A stretch of 64,000 nt of DNA from an uncultured Gammaproteobacteria bacterium (GCA_964537905.1 CAZICU010000001.1:15046-79045); one strand, 5' to 3'; shown: positions 19,163 through 36,044, numbered from the stretch's first letter. Notes: a model not told the origin generated them from the letters alone. Numbers and translations: made by a program.

Positions 19163-19503
19163 TAAAATTATTAAAAATTAACGCATTTCCACCGCAAAAA
19201 ACAAAAAATCTAAAAACTGATAGACTGACAAACAATTTCATTGTTGTTAAACTTAATCGTCCTACCTCAAGCATCCACTTTAAGAAGGTGTTTTTTCTAG
19301 CTAAACTTCTTAAAAGGAGAACTTGTGCCTGACTAGACTTGTTCTTGCCAGACCAGTTTTCCCCACGTTTTTATAGCGTGGAAAAGCCACTATTGAAGTC
19401 GCTTTGGGTGGGACAACTCTTTTCGTTTAAATAGGACTAAATTTGAAGTGAAACGACAAATTTTGCCTATTTACACGATCCCGATTTATCGGGAAAATAC
19501 ATT

Positions 19504-20411: not shown

Positions 20412-20483
20412 GCCTGAGTAGCTCAGTGGTAGAGCAATCCTTTTGTAAAGGAAAGGTCGTGAGTTCGACTCCCACCTCAGGCT
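20412..20483 (+). tRNA. tRNA-Thr (anticodon UGU)
   Basis: Manual cloverleaf: acceptor GCCTGAG/CTCAGGC, D-arm GCTC-AGTGGTA-GAGC, anticodon loop TTTGTAA, variable loop AGGTC, T-loop TTCGACT. CCA not encoded. Confidence 0.8.
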
Positions 20484-20529
20484 CATTTTTATAAATTATT
20501 TTGATACAATATCAAAGTATTAATAGTCT

Positions 20530-20602
20530 GCCCGGATAGCTCAGTTGGTAGAGCATCCCCTTGGTAAGGGGAAGGTCATGAATTCGAGTTTCATTCCGGG
20601 CT
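20530..20602 (+). tRNA. tRNA-Thr (anticodon GGU)
   Basis: Acceptor GCCCGGA/TCCGGGC, D-arm GCTC-AGTTGGTA-GAGC, anticodon stem TCCCC/GGGGA with loop TTGGTAA, T-arm ATGAA-TTCGAGT-TTCAT. Confidence 0.85.
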
Positions 20603-20606
20603 CAAA

Positions 20607-20891
20607 ATGAATGGATATATTTATGTCCTTCAATCTCTTAAAAATGGCCGATTTTATATTGGCAGTACCAATAATTTAGAAAGAAGATTAATTGAACATA
20701 ATCAAGGAATAAGTACTTATACTAGTTTTACTAAACCTTTTGAAATGATTTTTTCTCAAAAATTTGACAATTTAATAACTGCCAGAAAAATAGAATTTAA
20801 ACTAAAGCAATTTAAAAGCAAAAAAGTTATAATAGACATCATTAAGTCAGGAGTGATTAGAATTGATGAATTCTCCAACATTAGTTGGTAG
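20607..20891 (+). CDS. Small GIY-YIG nuclease family protein (94 aa), copy 1
   Basis: YIYVLQSLKNGRFYIGSTNNLERRLIEHN is a GIY...YIG..R..EH catalytic motif. ATG begins 4 nt after the tRNA-Thr(GGU) discriminator. Stop TAG lies inside the downstream tRNA fragment D-loop (agttggTAGagca). Confidence 0.75.
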   Translation: MNGYIYVLQSLKNGRFYIGSTNNLERRLIEHNQGISTYTSFTKPFEMIFSQKFDNLITARKIEFKLKQFKSKKVIIDIIKSGVIRIDEFSNISW

Positions 20892-20942
20892 AGCAGTCCG
20901 ATTGGTTCGGACAGGTCGTGGATTCGAGTTCCACTCCAGGCT
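20883..20942 (+). pseudogene. tRNA 3' fragment (D-loop to acceptor 3' end; positions ~14-73), lacking 5' acceptor and D-stem strand
   Basis: agttggtagagca-GTCCG-attggtt-CGGAC-aggtc-GTGGA-ttcgagt-TCCAC-tccaggc-t. The 5' side is replaced by GIY-YIG ORF1 coding sequence. Confidence 0.65.
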
Positions 20943-20946
20943 CAAA

Positions 20947-21231
20947 ATGAATGGATATGTTTATGTCCTTCAATCTTTAAAAAACAATAGATTTTATATT
21001 GGCAGTACTACCAATATTCAAAGAAGATTAATCGAACATAATTCTGGCCGAAGCACTTATACTAGTTTCTCAAGACCTTTCGAACTAATTTTTTCTCAAA
21101 AATTTGACTCCATCACTATTGCTAAAAAGATAGAATTTAAAATTAAGCAATTTAAAAGTAAAAAAGTTATAATAGACATCATTAAGTCAGGAGAAATTAG
21201 AATTGATGAGTTCTTCAACATTAGTTGGTAG
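20947..21231 (+). CDS. Small GIY-YIG nuclease family protein, copy 2 (~80% identical to copy 1; ORF-track N-terminal extension is translated tRNA fragment)
   Basis: MNGYVYVLQSLKNNRFYIGSTTNIQRRLIEHN. Starts 4 nt after the tRNA-fragment 3' end. Ends EFFNISW* with TAG in the next tRNA fragment. Confidence 0.75.
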   Translation: MNGYVYVLQSLKNNRFYIGSTTNIQRRLIEHNSGRSTYTSFSRPFELIFSQKFDSITIAKKIEFKIKQFKSKKVIIDIIKSGEIRIDEFFNISW

Positions 21232-21281
21232 AGCAGTCCGAAGTATCGGACAGGTCATGAATTCGAGTTTCATTCCGGGCT
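21223..21281 (+). pseudogene. Second tRNA 3' fragment; T-arm and acceptor 3' strand identical to tRNA-Thr(GGU) 20572-20602, anticodon loop degenerate (6 nt)
   Basis: agttggtagagca-GTCCG-aagtat-CGGAC-aggtcatgaattcgagtttcattccgggc-t. Confidence 0.65.
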
Positions 21282-21369
21282 CACATCAGTTTATAAAGTC
21301 AAAAGTTTTTAAAGTTTCTAAATTAAATTACTTTATAACTTTATAACTTTATAAACTTTCAACTGATTT

Positions 21370-21452
21370 GGAGGGGTGCTCCGAATGGTAAGGAACTTGT
21401 TTTGAAAACAAGCGTCAGCAATGACATGCAGGTTCAACTCCTGTCCCCTCCG
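21370..21452 (+). tRNA. tRNA-Ser (anticodon UGA), class II with long variable arm
   Basis: Acceptor GGAGGGG/CCCCTCC, 3-bp D-stem, anticodon stem CTTGT/ACAAG with loop TTTGAAA, long variable arm, T-arm GCAGG-TTCAACT-CCTGT, discriminator G. Confidence 0.7.
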
Positions 21453-21567
21453 CCTTCGCCCGACGAAGTGATAACGTAGGCGGGTAATATTCAATATTCT
21501 TAGCCCAATAAAAGTAATTTTGTTTCCTGCTTCAGCGGACAATGTCCGCATTAATGTAAAATTAATT

Positions 21568-21831
21568 GTGCAATATGTTTATATTTTAAGATGTAGTAAT
21601 AATCATCCATACATTGGGTGTACTGATAATTTAAAAGAAAGAATCGAAAGACATAATAATGGTTATGTTCCAGCCACAAAAGAATTAAGACCACTTAAAT
21701 TAATTTGGTATTCATGTTTTGAAGATAAATATTTAGCATTTAATTTTGAAAAATATTTAAAAACTTGTTCTGGTAGAGTATTAATCAATAAAAGATTAAT
21801 TACCAATATCACGAAACCAAATGTGAAGTAG
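21568..21831 (+). CDS. Small GIY-YIG nuclease family protein, copy 3 (divergent; GTG start at 21568 or TTG at 21520)
   Basis: VYILRCSNNHPYIGCTDNLKERIERHN GIY-YIG motif. Stop followed 5 nt later by ctgttcccctccgcc, a copy of the tRNA-Ser acceptor 3' strand. Confidence 0.6.
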   Translation: MQYVYILRCSNNHPYIGCTDNLKERIERHNNGYVPATKELRPLKLIWYSCFEDKYLAFNFEKYLKTCSGRVLINKRLITNITKPNVK

Positions 21832-21835
21832 ATCT

Positions 21836-21850
21836 GTTCCCCTCCGCCAA
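21836..21850 (+). repeat. 15-nt remnant of tRNA-Ser 3' end (ctgt-t-cccctccgcc) immediately downstream of GIY-YIG copy 3
   Basis: Compare tRNA-Ser 21440-21454 ctgtcccctccgcc. Confidence 0.5.
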
Positions 21851-21881: not shown

Positions 21882-22853
21882 TTAATTGATTTTATTTAAG
21901 TATTTATACATATTATTTCTTAGTTCAGTAGCCACGATTCTAGCCTCATCATTATTATTAATTCTCTTAGATCCAATAGGGACTGGATTAATACAGAAAC
22001 CTTCATGAATATTATACCCGTGAACACCAATTATTGTAGGAAAATTAAGTTTCTCAATAATTTGAGCCGTTTGTTCAGATACTTCGTATGGAGTTAGATT
22101 ACAATTTTGATTTAATTCTTCTTGTTTTTTCATCCAAATTTCATATGGAGTATTGGGTTTAATTTGAAGACCCATAAAAGTAATCCAGTCTGGTCTAGTT
22201 TCATTTAAAATTCTGGCAGTATCTTCAACATGCTTATTAAAATAAGACATACCACCTAAACCAGGCATAACCATAGTTGAATTTAAAATATTTCCTCGAT
22301 TTAAAATTTCACCAGCACGAGCAACCTGATCAGAGTCATAACCCTTACCTGCAATTTTAAGAACTTCACTATTACCACTTTCCAAGCCCCAATAAACCAA
22401 TTTTTTTGGATAAGAGCGACCAGATCTTCTAAAATCTTCCATACCTTCTCTTCCTTTTTTCAAGATATCTTGAGTGTTACCGTAAACAGATAGACGAATC
22501 AAATCAAAACCATTTTTCTTAAAAACTTCATTTATGTGACTACTTGCTTCTATTAATTTTTCAATATCAACATTTAAAGCATTACCAGCCCCAATAAAAG
22601 CTCTATAAATCGTTGTTTTATTAGAGACAAAATTCATTACTGAGTGAACATGCGCTTTAAAAATTTCTATTTTTTTTTCTTTATAATTTGGTCCATCATA
22701 AATATTACAAAATGTACAACGACCATGACTACAACCAGTAGTCAATTCAAATTGGACAACATGCGGACCTCTTTCGGATGGTGGCGGAACCATATGCTCC
22801 CTACTAAAACCCTTTCTTCCAATTAATCTTTCACAATAAGGTATATTTGGCAT
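21882..22853 (-). CDS. Radical SAM protein, YhcC/YtqA (TIGR01212)-like
   Basis: TTGCSHGRCTFCNI (GC...GCTFCN signature of the YhcC family) and WGLESGNSEVL...MPGLGG distal motifs. ~320 aa. Confidence 0.55.
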   Translation of the reverse strand: MPNIPYCERLIGRKGFSREHMVPPPSERGPHVVQFELTTGCSHGRCTFCNIYDGPNYKEKKIEIFKAHVHSVMNFVSNKTTIYRAFIGAGNALNVDIEKLIEASSHINEVFKKNGFDLIRLSVYGNTQDILKKGREGMEDFRRSGRSYPKKLVYWGLESGNSEVLKIAGKGYDSDQVARAGEILNRGNILNSTMVMPGLGGMSYFNKHVEDTARILNETRPDWITFMGLQIKPNTPYEIWMKKQEELNQNCNLTPYEVSEQTAQIIEKLNFPTIIGVHGYNIHEGFCINPVPIGSKRINNNDEARIVATELRNNMYKYLNKIN

Positions 22854-22996
22854 AAGTTCGATATTTTATCAAAATAGTTATTTTTTTTCAAACTATAGGC
22901 TTTTTTTTAATTTTACAACAAAAATCAAACTAAAATTTATTTTATTATTTTTTGTTTACAGACAGAAATTATTATAAGGACAAAAATATTTCAACT

Positions 22997-23017
22997 CCTG
23001 TCCCCTCCGCTCACCAA
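22997..23017 (+). repeat. 21-nt direct duplicate of the tRNA-Ser 3' end (ttcaactcctgtcccctccgc), ~1.5 kb downstream of the tRNA
   Basis: Exact match to tRNA-Ser 21432-21452 (T-loop through acceptor 3' strand); att-like scar. Confidence 0.6.
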
Positions 23018-24008: not shown

Positions 24009-24035
24009 GGGCGGGTCTTGTGCCCGCCTTTTTTG
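24009..24035 (+). terminator. Intrinsic terminator after rpmG; stem-loop is a REP-like GGGCGGG-tcttgtg-CCCGCC palindrome related to hairpins in the RAYT gene at 59.1-59.6 kb
   Basis: gggcgggtcttgtgcccgcc followed by tttttt. Confidence 0.7.
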
Positions 24036-24038
24036 TTT

Positions 24039-24992
24039 ATGAATCAAAAAATACTATCAAACCTAGAAAGTATCTACATCTCTCCTCTCGAAAGTTGTAA
24101 TCTCACCTGCAAATATTGTTACACTCATAAAACCACTAATGTTTTATCTAACCAGCAAATTCTAACTTTTATTGATCAATATTCTGGTTTTATTCATAAA
24201 TCTTATTCTTTGAATCTTAAATCTATCGTATTATGTGGTGGCGAAGTCTTTTTACTTCCAGATTTTCCTGAATTAATCAATACTTTGATCGATAAAGATA
24301 TATTTATCACCATAATCACCAATGGTACTATTGACCGACTTCAAAAAATAAAAAAGCCCGATAATTGCCAAATTTTAGTTTCTCTCGATGGACCAAAAGA
24401 TATTCATGATCAAAATCGCGGTTCTGGTAATTTTAATAAATCCATTAAATATATCAAACACGCTCATAAATTAGGCTTTCCTGTCGGTATTATGTTTTTA
24501 ATCACCCAAGACTCCTATCCTTACAAAGATTTCTTTCCCTCTTATTTATCTAAAATACTAGCGAACCAGCGAACCAGCGAACTAAGTTTTACCTATCTTA
24601 CCGATCGCAAAATATCTCTAACCAACGACCAATGTCTTGATATTAAACTTCACTACCCTACTTTCCCCAACAAAAATTTTGGTTGTTATCAAATCAGTCT
24701 TCAATCCAACGGTAACATTACTGGTTGTTGTGAATCTTCTATTTCTCTGGGAAAAATCATTGACAATCCTCAGGTTTATGTTTCTAAATTTATCAATTCT
24801 CTTTCAAAATGTTCTAATTGTAAAATTTCAACATTAAATAATTCATTAAAAATTAAATGTTATGGTTGTTGCGATCCATCATATTTGTGTGGTTACCCTC
24901 AAGAATTCCATCAAAACTCCTGTCAAGATATAATAAAATTATTTAACACAAAACCCTCCTGTCCCGACCAAAGTTGGGACATCCTCCCTTAA
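24039..24992 (+). CDS. Radical SAM / SPASM-domain protein (anSME/peptide-maturase-like), true start MNQKILSN
   Basis: CNLTCKYCY (CxxxCxxC), LCGGEVFLLPD, VSLDGPKDIHDQNRGSGNFNKSIKYIKHAHKLG, C-terminal Cys-rich SPASM/twitch region with ~12 Cys. Confidence 0.7.
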   Translation: MNQKILSNLESIYISPLESCNLTCKYCYTHKTTNVLSNQQILTFIDQYSGFIHKSYSLNLKSIVLCGGEVFLLPDFPELINTLIDKDIFITIITNGTIDRLQKIKKPDNCQILVSLDGPKDIHDQNRGSGNFNKSIKYIKHAHKLGFPVGIMFLITQDSYPYKDFFPSYLSKILANQRTSELSFTYLTDRKISLTNDQCLDIKLHYPTFPNKNFGCYQISLQSNGNITGCCESSISLGKIIDNPQVYVSKFINSLSKCSNCKISTLNNSLKIKCYGCCDPSYLCGYPQEFHQNSCQDIIKLFNTKPSCPDQSWDILP

Positions 24993-33449: not shown

Positions 33450-36044
33450 GTGAAACTCTTTTTTAAAAAAAATTTTTATCCATTAGCTTTAGGTCTAATT
33501 GTTTCTTTTCTTTGTTGGCGCAACTTTACCCCCAATACTTTTTTAACCGGATGGGACAATCTCATGCCCGAATTAAATATTTGGCTCAATCTTAAACGCT
33601 CATTCTTTGCAGTTTGGCAAAACTATCAAGGTCTCGGTTTAGTTGGCGGTATGGCTCATAGCACTGATTTAATTCGTCAACTCATTATTCTGCCTTTCAC
33701 TTTTATCCTTCCTCTTAATCTTGTTCGATACCTTTGGCATTTTGCCATGATTTTTTTAGGTACTTTTGGCGTCTATTTTGGTCTTTCAAAAATCATCAAA
33801 TTAAAACCATCTTCTTCATTCATTGCCGCTCTTTTTTACCTTCTCAGTTTTGGTTCAGTTCAAAATTTTTGGGTTCCGCTAGAAACATTTTCCTGTTTTT
33901 GGGGATTTTTTCCTTGGCTTATTTTTTCTCTTTTAGATTATCTAAAAAATCCTACAACTTCTAAGCTTAGTAAACTTTTAATTTTTAATTTACTCGCTAT
34001 CCCTAGTTTTTATGTCCAAACTGTTTTTATTGTTTATCTTTTAGTCTTATTTATTATTTTTATAATTTATCCCAAATCTTTTTTTACCCTTATCAAAATT
34101 GGACTGATTAATTCTTTTTGGCTTCTCCCACTTATCTATTTTCTTACCACTAATTTAAATGGACCAGCTAATGGATTTGGTAATCTTATGTCTAATGATG
34201 AAACTTTTTTAAGAAATTTTTATCGAGGCGGTATTTTAGATTTCCTTTTACTTCGAGGCTATTACTACGATTTTCCAAAAAATTACGGTTTTTTAATGAA
34301 TATTTGGCGTCAATTCTTTTCTTCCCCTATCCCAATCATCACTGGTATTCTTCTTGGTCTTTCAGCCATTAGTGGTTTTATTATTACTTCTATTAAGAAA
34401 AATAAGACTATTTTTGATAAATTTTTAATCGGTTTATTTTTACTTTCCGCTATTGCCTTACTTTCTCAAATTCCTCCATTTGCTCAAATTAACTATCTTC
34501 TTCGACAAATTCCTTTGATTAATCAAATATTTCGCTCCCCTTTTACCAAATTTATTACTCCAGCCGTTTTTGTTTTCTCTTGTTTAATTGCTAATTTAAT
34601 TGAAAAAATTTCTCTTAAATTTCAAAAATATATCTCCCTTTTAGCTTTTATTTCTATAATAATTTTTTCTTTTCCTAGTTTTAACGGTCATTATATTTCC
34701 CCTGACATGAGAAAAAATATTCCCCAAGAATATTTTGATCTAATCAATTTTTTTAAAATTCAAAATCCAAATGGACGTATTGCTAATTTACCTCAAGGCT
34801 CTTTTTGGGGTTGGACTAATTATCGTTTTGGTATTAGTGGTTCCGGATTTCTTTGGTATGGCATCGAACAACCAATTTTAGATCGAGCCTTTGATGTTTG
34901 GAACCTCAAAAACGAACAATATTATTGGGAGCTCAACACTGCTCTTCAAAAAGATAATTATTTAGAATTAAATAAAATTTTTGAAAAATATGCCATTCAA
35001 TACGTTATTTTTGATAATAATGTCTTTTTCCCTGATGAAAAAATTTACAACAACATCGCCATTACCACCAAAGAAAAATTAGATAATTTATCTTCACTTC
35101 AAAAAATTGCTGAATTTGGTCAAATCACTGTCTACCAGACTCCCTTTATTACTCAAAAATATTTTGTTAATAATCCAGTTTCTATCAATAAATTTAATTT
35201 TTATTATTCCGACCCAGCTTTCTCTAAATTTAATAACTATATCAATAGTCATCAAATTAACTATCACTTCCCTTTTGTTAATTTATTTACTAATCGTCTT
35301 CTTTCTGAGCAAGAATTTTCAGTTTCTAAAAATGAAAGTTCAATTATAATAAATTTTCAAAATCAAAACCTTAGTTTTAATCTCGATAATTCAGCTAATG
35401 CTGAATACAATATTGGTCTTCCAAATGAAAAAACATCTTTAACTGTTTACAATTTTCCCCAAGCAAAACTTAATCAAAATTATTTAGTTGAAGTTAATTA
35501 TAAATTTATTTCTGGGCTTCCCAGTCAAATTAGTGTTGTTTCCACTAATTATCGTCACAAATATTTTGATACCAAACTCAAAAAATCTACCACCGATACC
35601 ACTTCTTGGTTTATCATTCCAGCTCACGAAACTGAAGATTTCCAACCAGGAATTGATATTATTTTTAATAATTCTTATCTTTCAGAAATTCCCAGCCAAA
35701 ACCAAATAAATTTTGTTAAAATTTATCCTTTTGATTTAAATTCCTTAATAAACCAATATCAATTTCTTTCCCCACCTCAACCATCAACTTACATTTTTTA
35801 TCCTCAATCTTATTCTTCTGGTTGGCTCGCTTTCTACTTCGATGGCCTAAAACCAATTTTTCTCAAAAATCATGTTCTTGCCAACAACTGGGCCAATGCT
35901 TGGCTTGTCGGCCAAGACTACGAAGTTGTCGGCGGAGAATTACCAAAAATATATGTTCTCTTCTGGCCTCAAATTTTTCAATATATTGGTCTAATCATCA
36001 CCGCCACCACTCTGATTTTGGTTTTAAAAAAATCTAAAAAATAA
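33450..36044 (+). CDS. YfhO-family polytopic membrane glycosyltransferase (GT-C-like), 864 aa
   Basis: ~13 N-terminal TM helices, large extracytoplasmic domain, C-terminal TM. Size and pairing with a CsbB-like GT2 matches the B. subtilis csbB-yfhO arrangement. Confidence 0.55.
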   Translation: MKLFFKKNFYPLALGLIVSFLCWRNFTPNTFLTGWDNLMPELNIWLNLKRSFFAVWQNYQGLGLVGGMAHSTDLIRQLIILPFTFILPLNLVRYLWHFAMIFLGTFGVYFGLSKIIKLKPSSSFIAALFYLLSFGSVQNFWVPLETFSCFWGFFPWLIFSLLDYLKNPTTSKLSKLLIFNLLAIPSFYVQTVFIVYLLVLFIIFIIYPKSFFTLIKIGLINSFWLLPLIYFLTTNLNGPANGFGNLMSNDETFLRNFYRGGILDFLLLRGYYYDFPKNYGFLMNIWRQFFSSPIPIITGILLGLSAISGFIITSIKKNKTIFDKFLIGLFLLSAIALLSQIPPFAQINYLLRQIPLINQIFRSPFTKFITPAVFVFSCLIANLIEKISLKFQKYISLLAFISIIIFSFPSFNGHYISPDMRKNIPQEYFDLINFFKIQNPNGRIANLPQGSFWGWTNYRFGISGSGFLWYGIEQPILDRAFDVWNLKNEQYYWELNTALQKDNYLELNKIFEKYAIQYVIFDNNVFFPDEKIYNNIAITTKEKLDNLSSLQKIAEFGQITVYQTPFITQKYFVNNPVSINKFNFYYSDPAFSKFNNYINSHQINYHFPFVNLFTNRLLSEQEFSVSKNESSIIINFQNQNLSFNLDNSANAEYNIGLPNEKTSLTVYNFPQAKLNQNYLVEVNYKFISGLPSQISVVSTNYRHKYFDTKLKKSTTDTTSWFIIPAHETEDFQPGIDIIFNNSYLSEIPSQNQINFVKIYPFDLNSLINQYQFLSPPQPSTYIFYPQSYSSGWLAFYFDGLKPIFLKNHVLANNWANAWLVGQDYEVVGGELPKIYVLFWPQIFQYIGLIITATTLILVLKKSKK

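Follow-up and report, generated by a model that had tools for sequence, protein, structure and literature searches.

Three small GIY-YIG genes lie within a cluster of tRNA-Thr and tRNA-Ser genes in the 64-kb stretch of DNA analysed herein (the window), and two of them terminate inside partial copies of a tRNA, which raises the question of whether such genes are mobile DNA or ordinary residents of a tRNA operon. We consider it probable that they belong to a large group of minimal, selfish cassettes, which reside in or against tRNA genes and are spread by recombination.

Organization of the tRNA-Thr/tRNA-Ser locus

The cluster opens with tRNA-Thr(UGU) (20412–20484; Rfam RF00005, 65.2 bits), followed by an intact tRNA-Thr(GGU) at 20530–20603 (Rfam 69.2 bits; 3' end at 20602/3, with the discriminator base at 20602) and, further downstream, by tRNA-Ser(UGA) at 21370–21454 (Rfam 50.5 bits), all of which are on the plus strand and are also called by ARAGORN. 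The tRNA-Thr(GGU) gene has a true anticodon arm (tcccc ttggtaa gggga) together with a T arm and acceptor that we refer to as type A. No terminator-like site was found within the tRNA cluster, and a listing of the ORFs between 19000 and 24500 comprised a GT2 gene, the three GIY-YIG genes, a radical SAM gene and small proteins. A sequence-only reading of the locus had proposed the three GIY-YIG genes, and all of them match Pfam PF01541 on the plus strand: ORF1 (94 aa, 20607–20891, E=6.8e-15), ORF2 (94 aa, 20947–21231, E about 7e-15) and ORF3 (87 aa, GTG start, 21568–21831, E about 7e-15).

The junctions of ORF1 and ORF2 with the surrounding tRNA sequence are as that reading had described them. 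The discriminator base at 20602 is followed by CAAA and then by the ATG of ORF1 at 20607, and an identical junction precedes ORF2, such that each ORF begins 4 nt past a tRNA 3' end. Both ORFs finish with ...AAC ATT AGT TGG TAG within the D-loop motif AGTTGGTAGAGCA, the TAG stop of ORF1 falling in the D-loop motif of the first of two downstream tRNA fragments. The window contains just three copies of this motif, at 20543, 20883 and 21223, against 0.07 occurrences expected by chance. The proposed alignment of the repeated units also held, in that TRF reports a tandem array on the plus strand at 20543–21283 with a period of 340 bp, 2.2 copies and 82% matches, whose unit is [tRNA positions 12-76 + CAAA + ORF]; the 340-bp units contain the nuclease ORF (94 codons) and no other gene.

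The ORFs encode predicted single-domain nucleases

The three proteins score 55.5–55.6 bits against PF01541 (cut-off 22.6), which places them in the GIY-YIG superfamily. The catalytic positions (the GIY and YIG tyrosines, Arg and Glu) are conserved, as Y6, Y17, G19, R27 and E63 are the same in all of 37 sequences and H31 and N32 in nearly all, and an AlphaFold model of ORF1 (pLDDT 91) contains the expected beta-beta-alpha-beta-alpha-alpha elements. When compared with solved structures, the family profile matched 1zg2 (E=6.8e-16) and 1ywl (E=1.8e-13), while the top Foldseek matches were 1zg2 and Slx1. From these comparisons the protein is predicted to be a single-domain nuclease of the Slx1/UPF0213 type. 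Matches to TIGR01453 (20–27 bits) fell below its curated cut-off of 56 and covered residues 3–32 only, and matches to PHROG homing endonucleases covered residues 1–38 only. Unlike classical homing endonucleases of the I-TevI or SegA-G type, the 87–94 aa proteins consist of a catalytic domain without a C-terminal DNA-binding domain.

Estimates of dN/dS range from 0.05 to 0.29 overall and from 0.07 to 0.29 for ORF1, which points to purifying selection on the nuclease. Selection of this strength also fits a gene that is useful to its host, and the locus could in principle contain a UPF0213-type gene that is inherited vertically within tRNA operons, the array and fragments having arisen by local unequal crossing-over. 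The dN/dS values, the very large size of the family (28,676 cluster representatives), the lack of a terminator-like site in the cluster, and noted fusions of Slx1-like domains to a TrmH tRNA methyltransferase (PMC1564403) are all compatible with such a history.

Empty sites in close relatives and a probable recombination tract

We compared the locus with over 100 other genomes. In all occupied relatives of the 94-aa subfamily, the order is Thr(UGU), Thr(GGU), GIY ORF, fragment, Ser(UGA), and every protein ends N(I/L)SW*. Every occupied relative of the closest lineage has a single copy of the locus in conserved synteny, a pattern that holds down to about 70% protein identity and would also be expected from long vertical inheritance with rare losses. 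The search for empty sites that had been suggested for related genomes identified two, L103 and L104, which keep the synteny and possess neither ORF nor fragment. A quick neighbour-joining tree of one host protein (M50) places both among occupied genomes. The sequence-only reading had held that a fixed arrangement with no empty sites would count against mobility; the arrangement is indeed syntenic in all occupied close relatives, but the empty sites exist.

The two tandem ORFs differ in their affinities. ORF1 and ORF2 are 81% identical to each other, whereas ORF1 is 96% identical to its counterpart in L094 and the nearest relatives of ORF2 are P0009 (88%) and P0011 (86%). Since ORF2 is nearer to proteins of other genomes than to ORF1, these identities support separate origins of the two copies in different lineages, of which ORF1 would be the immigrant and ORF2 probably the resident. 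Consistent with this, nucleotide identity to L094 (blastn) is 69–75% left of an edge at 19422–19502, which was placed from blastn and protein identities, and 90–93% from GT2 through ORF1 and the first fragment; the host genes M50 and DUF1858 are only 54–58% identical to those of L094. Together, the empty sites and this tract are suggestive of the presence/absence polymorphism with co-converted flanks that marks classical homing endonucleases. The jump could also reflect ordinary recombination unrelated to the nuclease. Neither a circular or excised form of the cassette nor recent identical copies at different tRNAs of one genome were found, and movement in the closest lineage looks rare and like homologous recombination at a fixed site rather than free transposition.

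Set against these observations, vertical inheritance without mobility is unlikely. It accounts for the syntenic, single-copy occupied relatives, but not readily for empty sites nested among occupied genomes, for the affinities of ORF1 and ORF2, or for the sharp change in identity relative to L094. It likewise sits poorly with divergent paralogues at different tRNAs of one locus (ORF1 and ORF3 are 32% identical), with an ORF3 relative at 83% identity that lies after another tRNA-Ser isoacceptor, with ORF3 relatives in CPR bacteria and Bacteroidota that are about 64% identical, and with a hairpin module, described below, that is kept irrespective of tRNA identity.

A palindromic hairpin replaces the anticodon arm in the pseudo-tRNA fragments

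The pieces downstream of ORF1 and ORF2 had been read as 3' portions of tRNAs, and both fragment 1 (20883–20946) and fragment 2 (21223–21283), on the plus strand, can be aligned to tRNA-Thr(GGU) over a stretch that starts near position 12 and reaches the 3' end. Both lack the 5' acceptor and D-stem strand, and loops of 6–7 nt replace the anticodon loop. Neither is called a tRNA by ARAGORN or Rfam, even at E<=10. In each fragment a hairpin GTCCG...CGGAC with the core CCGA...TCGG takes the place of the anticodon arm, as GTCCGATTGGTTCGGAC at 20896–20912 in fragment 1 and as GTCCGAAGTATCGGAC at 21236–21251 in fragment 2. The pattern GTCCG-N3-9-CGGAC occurs only twice in the window, in fragment 1 and at 21236, compared with 0.03 expected, and no wider dispersal of the hairpin was seen beyond these two sites in 64 kb.

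Related nucleases at tRNA-Val, Asp, Arg and Thr have this hairpin next to them, and it accompanies the nuclease over differing tRNA identities and phyla. Near the ORFs, CCGAY...RTCGG occurs at 0.56 sites per kb versus 0.039, a 14-fold higher density, and it is present at 34 of 80 loci. The hairpin might act at the RNA level, in processing or stability, rather than as a DNA recognition site.

The fragments are also mosaic, as had been suspected from sequence. The T arm, acceptor (tccaggc) and anticodon-arm region of fragment 1 are all unlike those of tRNA-Thr(GGU), whereas fragment 2 combines a fragment-type hairpin with a type A T arm and acceptor that are the same as those of the intact gene; the sequence that follows fragment 2 on its 3' side (catcagtttataa...) recurs in L099. 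The left part of fragment 1 resembles the L094 fragment, the sole difference being TAG/TGG, and its 3' half is identical at 32/32 bases to the 3' half of an intact tRNA-Thr in L082 that we term type B. By these matches fragment 1 is a chimera of an L094-type D-loop and hairpin joined to a type B 3' half, the crossover lying past the hairpin and before the T arm and not at position 13/14.

The location of this crossover bears on the mechanism that the sequence-only reading had put forward, in which a unit comprising tRNA positions 14-76, aa and a stopless ORF inserts at D-loop position 13/14 of a tRNA gene, an intact tRNA is rebuilt from the 5' part of the host and the 3' part of the element, the 3' half of the host gene is shifted downstream and there provides the stop codon, and two rounds of insertion give the array. 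The anatomy of the window fits this proposal, as does the lack of an upstream pseudo-tRNA in the window and in L088. Most relatives, on the other hand, have an additional pseudo-tRNA upstream, which covers positions 1 to about 58 and contains this hairpin as well, and between it and the ORF lie a spacer that is conserved and an inner tRNA that is complete; the proposed insertion yields none of these. In L093, L094 and L099 a 22-nt hairpin breaks the upstream pseudo-tRNA precisely at position 11/14, which is again in its favour, and so is the observation that downstream fragments in other phyla often start at tRNA positions 9–20.

We nonetheless regard insertion of this exact unit as quite unlikely, because the anticodon arm of the host tRNA is never found in the downstream fragments, its place being taken by a palindromic hairpin common to elements at different tRNAs and in different phyla. 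From this it follows that the fragment, including the D-loop TAG, travels with the ORF, and the earlier view of the fragments as displaced host halves was not borne out. The chimeric structure of fragment 1 and the single-copy synteny of the relatives argue in the same direction. Two further observations favour the reading as selfish cassettes. In L099, one acceptor type (gcccgga/tccgggc) is common to the 5' end of the upstream pseudo-tRNA and the 3' end of the downstream fragment, as for two halves of a host tRNA, while the complete inner tRNA, as that of the element, has another (gcctgga/tccaggc). The hairpin variant is alike in the pseudo-tRNA and fragment of one genome and varies between genomes.

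The same design recurs across phyla

A same-strand tRNA with more than 15 identities abuts 65 of the 80 distant relatives, which come from many phyla. Flanking tRNA pieces numbered 60, versus 0 with a shuffled tRNA control, and include 5' parts and D-loop-to-T-loop segments in addition to 3' ends. The borrowing of a stop codon from tRNA sequence, which had been noted in the window, proved widespread; at 18 of the distant loci, U8-A9-G10 of an intact tRNA lying downstream serves as the stop. The same design was identified in Chloroflexi, Ignavibacteriota, Bacteroidota and Acidobacteriota, and tandem arrays are also present in two unrelated metagenome-assembled genomes (L010 and L037). The chromosomes that house the cassettes are cellular (CPR bacteria, Bacteroidota, Chloroflexi and others), and viral contigs contain essentially no close relatives; of 35 viral GIY-YIG relatives taken as a negative control, only 1 is situated close to a tRNA. 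The tRNA pieces, together with the empty sites, the two ORF lineages and the identity jump, support the earlier suggestion that the window contains mobile tRNA-coupled cassettes rather than a one-off arrangement.

A probable separate cassette type at tRNA-Ser

ORF3 is a member of a separate large clade linked to tRNA-Ser genes. It is separated from tRNA-Ser(UGA) by a leader on the plus strand (21455–21567) with a hairpin that is conserved in an alignment with relatives, where the leader also follows tRNA-Ser genes of other anticodons. In L103 and L104 the leader is present after tRNA-Ser without an ORF, and in the Sediminibacterium locus L180 the leader hairpin unit forms an 8-copy array. ORF3 represents a separate cassette type having its own hairpin leader. 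The tRNA-like sequence reported after ORF3 is present as an imperfect 15-nt copy of the tRNA-Ser 3' end, ctgttcccctccgcc, at 21836–21850 on the plus strand, and it is followed by a radical SAM gene on the minus strand (21882–22853; Pfam PF04055). A further copy of the tRNA-Ser 3' end (21433–21453) is exact over 21/21 nt, as had been claimed, and lies on the plus strand at 22990–23010, not at the 22997–23017 given previously. This 21-nt direct repeat bounds a 1.56-kb inserted block consisting of ORF3 and the radical SAM gene, which is missing after tRNA-Ser in L081, L094, L097 and L188.

Duplication of a tRNA 3' end is a classical signature of integrase islands, and the tRNA pieces could be att scars of decayed islands in which the GIY-YIG genes are leftover cargo. 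The exact repeat around a block that relatives lack resembles an att pair and matches the island signature, and insertion at a tRNA gene with a partial duplication that keeps the gene functional is a further likeness to tRNA-targeting integrases. A direct repeat of a tRNA 3' end was found at tRNA-Ser only, and for that repeat alone is the reading plausible. As an account of the whole locus it is very unlikely. No integrase was seen in Pfam searches of the GIY-YIG ORFs, GT2 and radical SAM or in ORF listings of the other 19–24.5 kb ORFs and the distant loci, and the units are as small as 340 bp, with the 94-codon ORF alone. Furthermore, the duplicated pieces extend beyond 3' ends to 5' and internal segments, and the replacement of the anticodon arm by a palindrome and the overlap of the ORF with tRNA sequence at its stop codon are too regular for decay.

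The window appears to be a contig of a metagenome-assembled genome, and as P0005, the protein spanning fragment 1 and ORF2, is on record from one contig only, the two-unit array is known from one assembly; the comparison data are likewise metagenome assemblies. That two strains' versions of the locus were mis-joined to create the array and the chimeric fragment is nevertheless highly improbable, given that the parental sequences share about 5–6 identical bases at the junction (cggac|aggtc), too few for a k-mer join, that assemblers usually collapse repeats rather than create them, and that comparable arrays occur in L010 and L037.

Comparison with known systems

The closest analogues are the Ssn nucleases with their flanking hairpin repeats and the tRNA-linked amplification by phage SegB. 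SsnA of Neisseria meningitidis is a 94-aa single-domain GIY-YIG protein (Ssn family, CDD cd10448) that cuts ssDNA a few nt 5' of a conserved sequence and hairpin repeat flanking ssnA, and its authors point to a resemblance to mobile elements (PMC11893778). As published, the Ssn system is similar to ours in having a lone 94-aa GIY-YIG domain with no DNA-binding domain and short, lineage-specific, GC-rich hairpin repeats on one or both sides (NTS-ssnA-NTS). The SsnA site is 5' of a hairpin, and here the junction lies immediately 5' of AGTTGGTAGAGCA and the hairpin; hairpin units also multiply in both, as in the Sediminibacterium array. The systems differ in that the hairpins described here lie inside tRNA-derived scaffolds beside a cognate tRNA gene, whereas tRNA is mentioned nowhere in the Ssn paper (PMC11893778). 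The genes here are flanked by the palindrome CCGA...TCGG and not by the SRM/NTS motif; the published SRM motif, HGTCWYN(0-2)YYVSBRHN(0-5)WNVSBRGN(0-2)RNCYNB, had 0 matches on either strand of the window. The nearest solved structures by sequence are, in our case, UPF0213 proteins.

SegB is encoded by a GIY-YIG gene among the tRNA genes of phages T4 and T6, cleaves the tRNA region, promotes the inheritance of segB and flanking tRNA genes, and has homologues associated with many tRNA isotypes (PMC2330249, PMC13096335). [quoted passage not shown] This outcome is close to the 340-bp [tRNA part + ORF] array in the window. SegB is over twice the length of the proteins described here and includes a DNA-binding region, in contrast to a bare catalytic domain of the Slx1/UPF0213 branch, and the cassettes are found in cellular chromosomes with essentially no close viral relatives. 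Pseudo-tRNA hairpin modules and a tRNA-supplied stop codon do not feature in the available portions of the SegB accounts (PMC2330249, PMC13096335).

By both sequence and fold, the best matches to the cassette proteins are the UPF0213 proteins BH0048 (PDB 1zg2) and EF2693 (PDB 1ywl) and Slx1, which share the same minimal domain. Slx1 is a structure-specific nuclease that acts on branched and stem-loop DNA, which would fit recognition of hairpin or cloverleaf DNA. Eukaryotic Slx1 differs in carrying a RING domain and having the partner Slx4, where the cassettes encode a single GIY-YIG domain. No genomic-context or mobility role for UPF0213 proteins was found in the literature searched, nor was any description of this tRNA-coupled hairpin/nuclease architecture, in agreement with the earlier impression of a new element class. 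Taken with their distribution, this suggests that the cassettes are a widespread and apparently undescribed form of selfish DNA, one that occupies tRNA genes but leaves them intact.

A model for tRNA-coupled cassettes

In the model we favour, wherein the activity of the nuclease, its target and the route of recombination are predicted, a cassette consists of an Slx1/UPF0213-like GIY-YIG gene of about 80–94 codons fused to tRNA-derived DNA. One side provides an intact tRNA of the targeted identity, and the other side, or both, a truncated pseudo-tRNA in which a short palindromic hairpin replaces the anticodon arm. The ORF begins a few nt past a tRNA 3' end and borrows its stop codon from tRNA sequence, namely the D-loop TAG in the window and U8-A9-G10 of an intact tRNA in many relatives. 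We infer that entry into a genome is by homologous recombination, for which the conserved tRNA arms may serve as portable homology. By analogy with Ssn and Slx1, the nuclease probably stimulates this recombination by cutting the tRNA gene or the hairpin module in single-stranded or extruded DNA. A crossover in the T arm/acceptor would leave an intact tRNA, the ORF and a hairpin fragment without positions 1–11, and one in the 5' region would give the mirror arrangement.

Judging from the mosaics, the window would have started with a resident type B tRNA-Thr(GGU), ORF2 and fragment 2. A second, L094-like segment containing GT2, the tRNAs, ORF1 and the hairpin may then have recombined in, with its left crossover near 19422–19502 and its right crossover within the resident tRNA, at a point between hairpin and T arm. 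The resident tRNA would in this way have been converted into fragment 1, giving rise to the two-unit array.

Architecture of the tRNA-Thr locus

Using ARAGORN, Rfam, Pfam and Tandem Repeats Finder, we confirmed the arrangement of tRNA genes and GIY-YIG ORFs that had been described from the sequence alone. ARAGORN and Rfam both identify tRNA-Thr(UGU) at 20412-20484 (65 bits in Rfam), tRNA-Thr(GGU) at 20530-20602/3 (69 bits), and tRNA-Ser(UGA) at 21370-21454 (50 bits), and the Pfam GIY-YIG catalytic domain is matched with E about 7e-15 by three small genes, ORF1 (20607-20891), ORF2 (20947-21231), and ORF3 (21568-21831). ORF1 is 81% identical to ORF2 but only 32% identical to ORF3. Tandem Repeats Finder describes 20543-21283 as a tandem array with a period of 340 (2.2 copies, 82% matches), the unit of which comprises tRNA positions about 12-76, CAAA, and an ORF. 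The start codons of ORF1 and ORF2 both lie 4 nt 3' of a discriminator base, and their C-terminal codons, AAC ATT AGT TGG TAG, fall within the D-loop motif AGTTGGTAGAGCA, which occurs at three sites in the 64 kb window against 0.07 expected. Located 3' of these two ORFs are fragment 1 (20883-20946) and fragment 2 (21223-21283), truncated pieces that align to tRNA-Thr(GGU), starting in the D loop and reaching the 3' end, and that are called as tRNA by neither ARAGORN nor Rfam. A promoter and terminator scan returned counts at shuffle level, with no terminators, and neither of the other two tRNAs in the window, Trp and Ala(GGC), has a GIY ORF nearby.

A weak GIY-like match at 34482-34661 falls within an 864-aa membrane protein and was judged spurious. 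We also abandoned a reading of the ORFs as leaderless mRNAs freed by tRNA 3' processing, as the lack of a Shine-Dalgarno (SD) motif before them is uninformative when only 8 of the 49 long ORFs in the window have an SD-like motif upstream. The scarcity of SD motifs and a window G+C of 32% fit a CPR/Patescibacteria (Microgenomates, Shapirobacteria-like) genome with little SD-led initiation. RNAalifold pairs the ORF codons K-S-G (AGTCAGGA) with the acceptor 3' strand of the fragment to give a tRNA-like fold; this was not relied on, because the pairs are all invariant, the codons are under coding constraint, and, by a hand estimate, ~0.5 7-bp matches of comparable quality are expected by chance in the upstream 60 nt.

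Empty sites occur among the close relatives

A protein search identified 16 homologues of ORF1 with 69-96% identity, of which 14 are exactly 94 aa and two are called with N-terminal extensions. All but one end in N(I/L)SW* and thus stop at the same D-loop TAG; the sole exception is L094, the comparison locus that is the closest relative of the window here, where TAG is changed to TGG and the ORF continues. Directly upstream of the tRNA-Thr cluster, L094 also has a 137-aa ORF (L094:2208-2621, minus strand) with a weak match to the homing-endonuclease-type Pfam family HNH_3, which is missing from the window.

Gene order is constant in all occupied loci retrieved, that is, those with a nuclease ORF at tRNA-Thr(GGU): tRNA-Thr(UGU), tRNA-Thr(GGU), 2-4 nt, the ORF, a tRNA fragment, and tRNA-Ser(UGA). 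Wherever the contigs of the relatives extend far enough, the L28, M50, and DUF1858 genes are found upstream as in the window. The sequence-only reading had proposed looking for empty sites in related genomes, and a scan anchored on the neighbouring M50 gene found two, in L103 and L104: here 58 or 41 nt separate tRNA-Thr(GGU) from tRNA-Ser, and both the ORF and the fragment are missing. In a neighbour-joining tree of M50, these two genomes are the sister of the window's clade and fall within the occupied set, from which it follows that the cassette was gained or cleanly lost inside the window's lineage. An arrangement both syntenic and fixed, which had been named in advance as speaking against a mobile unit, is therefore only half of what we see: the locus is syntenic, and single-copy in every occupied close relative, but L103 and L104 show that it is not fixed.

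Hairpins replace the anticodon arm in fragments and pseudo-tRNAs

In the window fragments, GTCCGATTGGTTCGGAC and GTCCGAAGTATCGGAC stand in place of the anticodon arm, and GTCCG-N3-9-CGGAC occurs in the 64 kb at these two sites only (0.03 expected). Most close relatives have three tRNA-Thr-derived pieces. The first is an upstream pseudo-tRNA, from position 1 to about 58, with the same kind of hairpin; roughly 25-35 nt further on, across a spacer with a short conserved motif common to the elements, is a complete tRNA with a true anticodon arm, followed by the ORF; and the last is a downstream fragment, spanning positions 12-76 or 12-55, that again has the hairpin. Within a genome the upstream and downstream hairpins are of one variant, and the variant changes between genomes (gtcccgccgctgcgggac in L093 and L099, gtccgaagtttcggac in L097, gtccgatgtttcggac in L188). 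The upstream piece of L099 starts exactly at the tRNA start of the empty-site locus L104, and the 5' acceptor strand of this piece (gcccgga) agrees with the 3' acceptor strand of the downstream fragment (tccgggc), while the complete inner tRNA is of the other acceptor type (gcctgga/tccaggc). In L099 a host tRNA appears to have been split by an insert carrying its own complete tRNA.

Further palindromes are present at these loci. Some pseudo-tRNAs have an extra hairpin exactly in the D loop (L093, L094, L099, and L100; e.g. L099:4062-4160), such as the 22-nt cctgctccgagccttcggagtca that separates positions 11 and 14, and at L030:3260-3330 a 62-nt GC-rich hairpin cluster occupies the D loop of a downstream tRNA-Ala copy. 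The spacer between tRNA-Thr(UGU) and tRNA-Thr(GGU) (20485-20529) contains the palindrome TTGATACAATATCAA (TTGGTACAATATCAAAG in some relatives), which is kept in L094, L099, L103, and L104, occupied and empty genomes alike, and may be a promoter or binding site.

The tandem copies have separate histories

The ORF1/ORF2 pair did not arise by recent duplication in place. ORF1 shares 96% identity with the protein of L094, and ORF2 is closer to the homologous proteins P0009 (88%) and P0011 (86%) than to ORF1 (only 81%); synonymous divergence between the two ORFs is 0.61, with a dN/dS of 0.19. Pairwise dN/dS values in the subfamily all lie between 0.05 and 0.29, indicating that both ORFs encode constrained proteins. 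At the DNA level, identity between the window and L094 is 69-75% as far as about 19420 and 90-93% from 19502, in the GT2 gene, across both Thr tRNAs, ORF1, and fragment 1, whereas the adjoining M50 and DUF1858 proteins are only 54-58% identical. Against L099 and L093, the nearest hosts, the identity of the window is about 78% on the left and about 74% over the stretch from ORF2 to tRNA-Ser.

Fragment 1 is chimeric. From the D loop through the hairpin it is the L094 fragment, the TAG/TGG difference aside, and the remaining 3' half (aggtcgtggattcgagttccactccaggctca) agrees with the corresponding half of the intact tRNA-Thr(GGU), at 32/32 bases in L082 and with one mismatch in L099. A chimera created during assembly is unlikely at this junction because the parental sequences have only about 5-6 bases in common there, although the two-unit array is known from one assembly only. 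The simplest history would start from a resident locus consisting of tRNA(type B), ORF2, and fragment 2, type B being one of two T-arm and acceptor variants of tRNA-Thr. An L094-like segment (GT2, tRNAs, ORF1, hairpin) would then have recombined into this locus, with a left crossover near 19.45-19.5 kb and a right crossover within the hairpin/T-arm interval of the resident tRNA, turning the latter into fragment 1.

tRNA-linked GIY-YIG cassettes recur across phyla

The fusion of a nuclease gene to tRNA and pseudo-tRNA modules recurs across phyla. A profile scan of one genome per species yielded 80 distant loci, with relatives 36-60% identical, mostly from CPR/Patescibacteria and also from Bacteroidota, Ignavibacteriota, Chloroflexi, Acidobacteriota, and further phyla. 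A same-strand tRNA lies within about 120 nt at 65 of the 80 loci, and more than 15 tRNA identities are represented beside the distant ORFs. By comparison, GIY-YIG relatives on viral contigs, all of them distant, adjoin a tRNA in 1 of 35 cases. At 18 of the 80 loci an intact tRNA downstream provides the ORF stop as its U8-A9-G10, and local alignment detected 60 extra tRNA-derived pieces no more than 600 nt from the ORFs versus none with shuffled tRNAs. One recurrent layout comprises a 5' pseudo-tRNA (1 to about 55), the ORF, and an intact tRNA, to which another 3' piece is often added downstream; in L012, tRNA pieces 1-55 and 56-73 lie on either side of the ORF and an intact tRNA-Gly. The mirror layout comprises an intact tRNA, the ORF, and a 3' fragment beginning at positions 9-20. 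Tandem arrays like that of the window follow tRNA-Pro in a Melioribacteraceae genome (L010) and tRNA-Ala in a Dehalococcoidia genome (L037), with the stop directly ahead of the fragment in both.

In all phyla with these fragments, the anticodon arm of the fragment has become a palindrome with a common core: GTCCGA...TCGGAC in CPR bacteria, beside tRNA-Val, Asp, Arg, and Thr; TCCCGAT...ATCGGGA in Bacteroidota; GGCCGA...TCGGCC in Acidobacteriota; and TCCCGACGCGTCGGGA in L010. The pattern CCGAY-N0-9-RTCGG is present in 34 of the 80 loci, at a density of 0.56 per kb within 350 nt of the ORFs and 0.039 in the rest of the loci, a 14-fold difference. Together, the common core and its concentration near the ORFs indicate that the hairpin tracks the nuclease rather than the identity of the tRNA.

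At E<=1e-3 the family profile matches 28,676 cluster representatives, and at the stricter E<=1e-10 it matches 7,678. Many of the best 150 of the 28,676 begin 20-40 or more residues ahead of the domain, and a few of the profile matches listed have two domains. The N-terminal extensions of the homologues P0005, P0008, and P0010 are translated tRNA sequence, and gene callers often start these small ORFs too far upstream, before or within the preceding tRNA or fragment, which looks like a systematic annotation artefact.

The nuclease is a bare GIY-YIG domain

AlphaFold predicts a GIY-YIG fold (beta-beta-alpha-beta-alpha-alpha; pLDDT 91) with no further domain, and both tyrosines, R27, and E63 are invariant. 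BH0048 and EF2693, both UPF0213 proteins, have the nearest solved structures by sequence and fold, with Slx1 next. The match to I-TevI is weak, homing-endonuclease models match only the first 30-40 or so residues, and the match to TIGR01453 falls under its curated cut-off.

A possible mechanism of spread

The comparisons show empty sites, mixing of lineages, mosaic crossovers inside tRNA sequence, and purifying selection. We infer that the cassette spreads by homologous recombination in which the conserved tRNA arms supply the homology. Crossing over in the T-arm/acceptor part would yield an intact tRNA, the ORF, and a hairpin fragment, one in the 5' part would yield the mirror form, and arrays would result from repeated entry or unequal exchange. 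The nuclease would probably start recombination by cuts in structured DNA of the tRNA gene or the hairpin. This route gains plausibility from two published systems. SsnA, a single-domain GIY-YIG enzyme of 94 aa, has a hairpin repeat next to its own gene and cuts single-stranded DNA a few nt 5' of this repeat (PMC11893778), and in phage T6 the tandem amplification of a tRNA-Tyr and segB unit depends on recombination and is driven by SegB (PMC13096335). In contrast to Ssn, the cassettes described here are tRNA-coupled, tRNA not being mentioned in the Ssn paper (PMC11893778), and the published Ssn motif is missing from the window.

The sequence-only reading had envisaged a unit of tRNA(14-76)+aa+ORF without its stop, inserted between D-loop positions 13 and 14. 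This exact model agrees with the anatomy of the window taken alone, but it would produce neither the hairpins that replace the anticodon arm, nor the chimeric fragment 1, nor the upstream pseudo-tRNAs. Judged by their sequence, the window fragments are not displaced host tRNA halves. Purely vertical inheritance of a gene useful to its host would explain the synteny and the purifying selection, but it is at odds with the empty sites, the two lineages within one array, the jump in identity to L094, and a hairpin that is independent of tRNA identity.

The openly searchable literature yielded no account of small GIY-YIG cassettes linked to tRNA genes in cellular genomes. On the features compared here, the cassettes would rate as a variant of the Ssn-like and homing-endonuclease-like selfish nucleases, and there is a real chance that they are a distinct class of element. 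A fuller reading, which we regard as possible and advance tentatively, is that they form an unrecognised, integrase-free class of mobile element of a few hundred bp, spread over many bacterial phyla. A bare Slx1/Ssn-like GIY-YIG nuclease would recognise either a palindromic hairpin set within a pseudo-tRNA or the tRNA gene itself as cloverleaf DNA, and the D and T arms, conserved in all tRNA genes, would provide portable homology for insertion. Such an element would keep or bring an intact tRNA, overlap an essential gene and take its stop codon from it, switch tRNA identity, and build tandem arrays; the overlap with an essential tRNA gene, stop codon included, would make the cassette hard to delete.

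If this mobile-element reading is true, a very small selfish element without an integrase would be using the tRNA gene both as a landing pad and as a shield against deletion. It would also place the tRNA-adjacent clade of the UPF0213/"GIY-YIG nuclease family protein" genes in a context and suggest a role for that clade that can be tested; these genes are among the largest uncharacterised groups of small bacterial proteins (>28,000 cluster representatives by profile). Many truncated tRNA genes and small tRNA-ORF tandem arrays, both a source of confusion in annotation, would be accounted for, as would N-terminally extended ORF calls that read through tRNA sequence. The cassettes would further offer cognate hairpin-nuclease pairs of diverse specificities, of the kind that the Ssn work has shown to be useful as single-strand DNA tools, and would tie in with the recent finding of tRNA gene amplification by a phage GIY-YIG enzyme.

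ORF3 lies in a separate block after tRNA-Ser

ORF3 belongs to a clade that is separate from, and larger than, that of ORF1 and ORF2, and in which identity between CPR and cultured Bacteroidota (Sediminibacterium, Marinifilum) is about 60-65%. Relatives that are 83% and 67% identical to ORF3 lie about 87-115 nt after tRNA-Ser genes with other anticodons (GCU, GGA) and are preceded by a conserved leader with a GCGGAC...GTCCGC hairpin. In the window, this leader of about 100 nt (21455-21567) separates tRNA-Ser from ORF3. It follows tRNA-Ser without any GIY ORF in L103 and L104, and in Sediminibacterium roseum (L180:1695-2450) it forms a tandem array of about 8 copies (8.2) of a 92-nt unit. Rfam, at E<=10, assigned no known RNA family to the leader, the fragments, or the hairpins.

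Between tRNA-Ser and an exact 21-nt repeat of its 3' end, the window contains the leader, ORF3, a 15-nt tRNA-Ser tail, and a radical SAM gene (21882-22853, minus strand; Pfam PF04055), and this block is missing after tRNA-Ser in L081, L094, L097, and L188. The tail 3' of ORF3 had been noticed from the sequence alone and is present; the 21-nt copy noticed with it is real as well, but lies at 22990-23010, 7 nt from where it had been placed. This outer repeat could be an old integrase-type att scar, although as an account of the cassettes integrase scars fit only the tRNA-Ser repeat, and no integrase is visible among the genes searched with Pfam (the GIY ORFs, GT2, and the radical SAM gene). A second ORF, at 24018-24992 on the plus strand, has a CxxxCxxC motif suggestive of a putative radical SAM enzyme.
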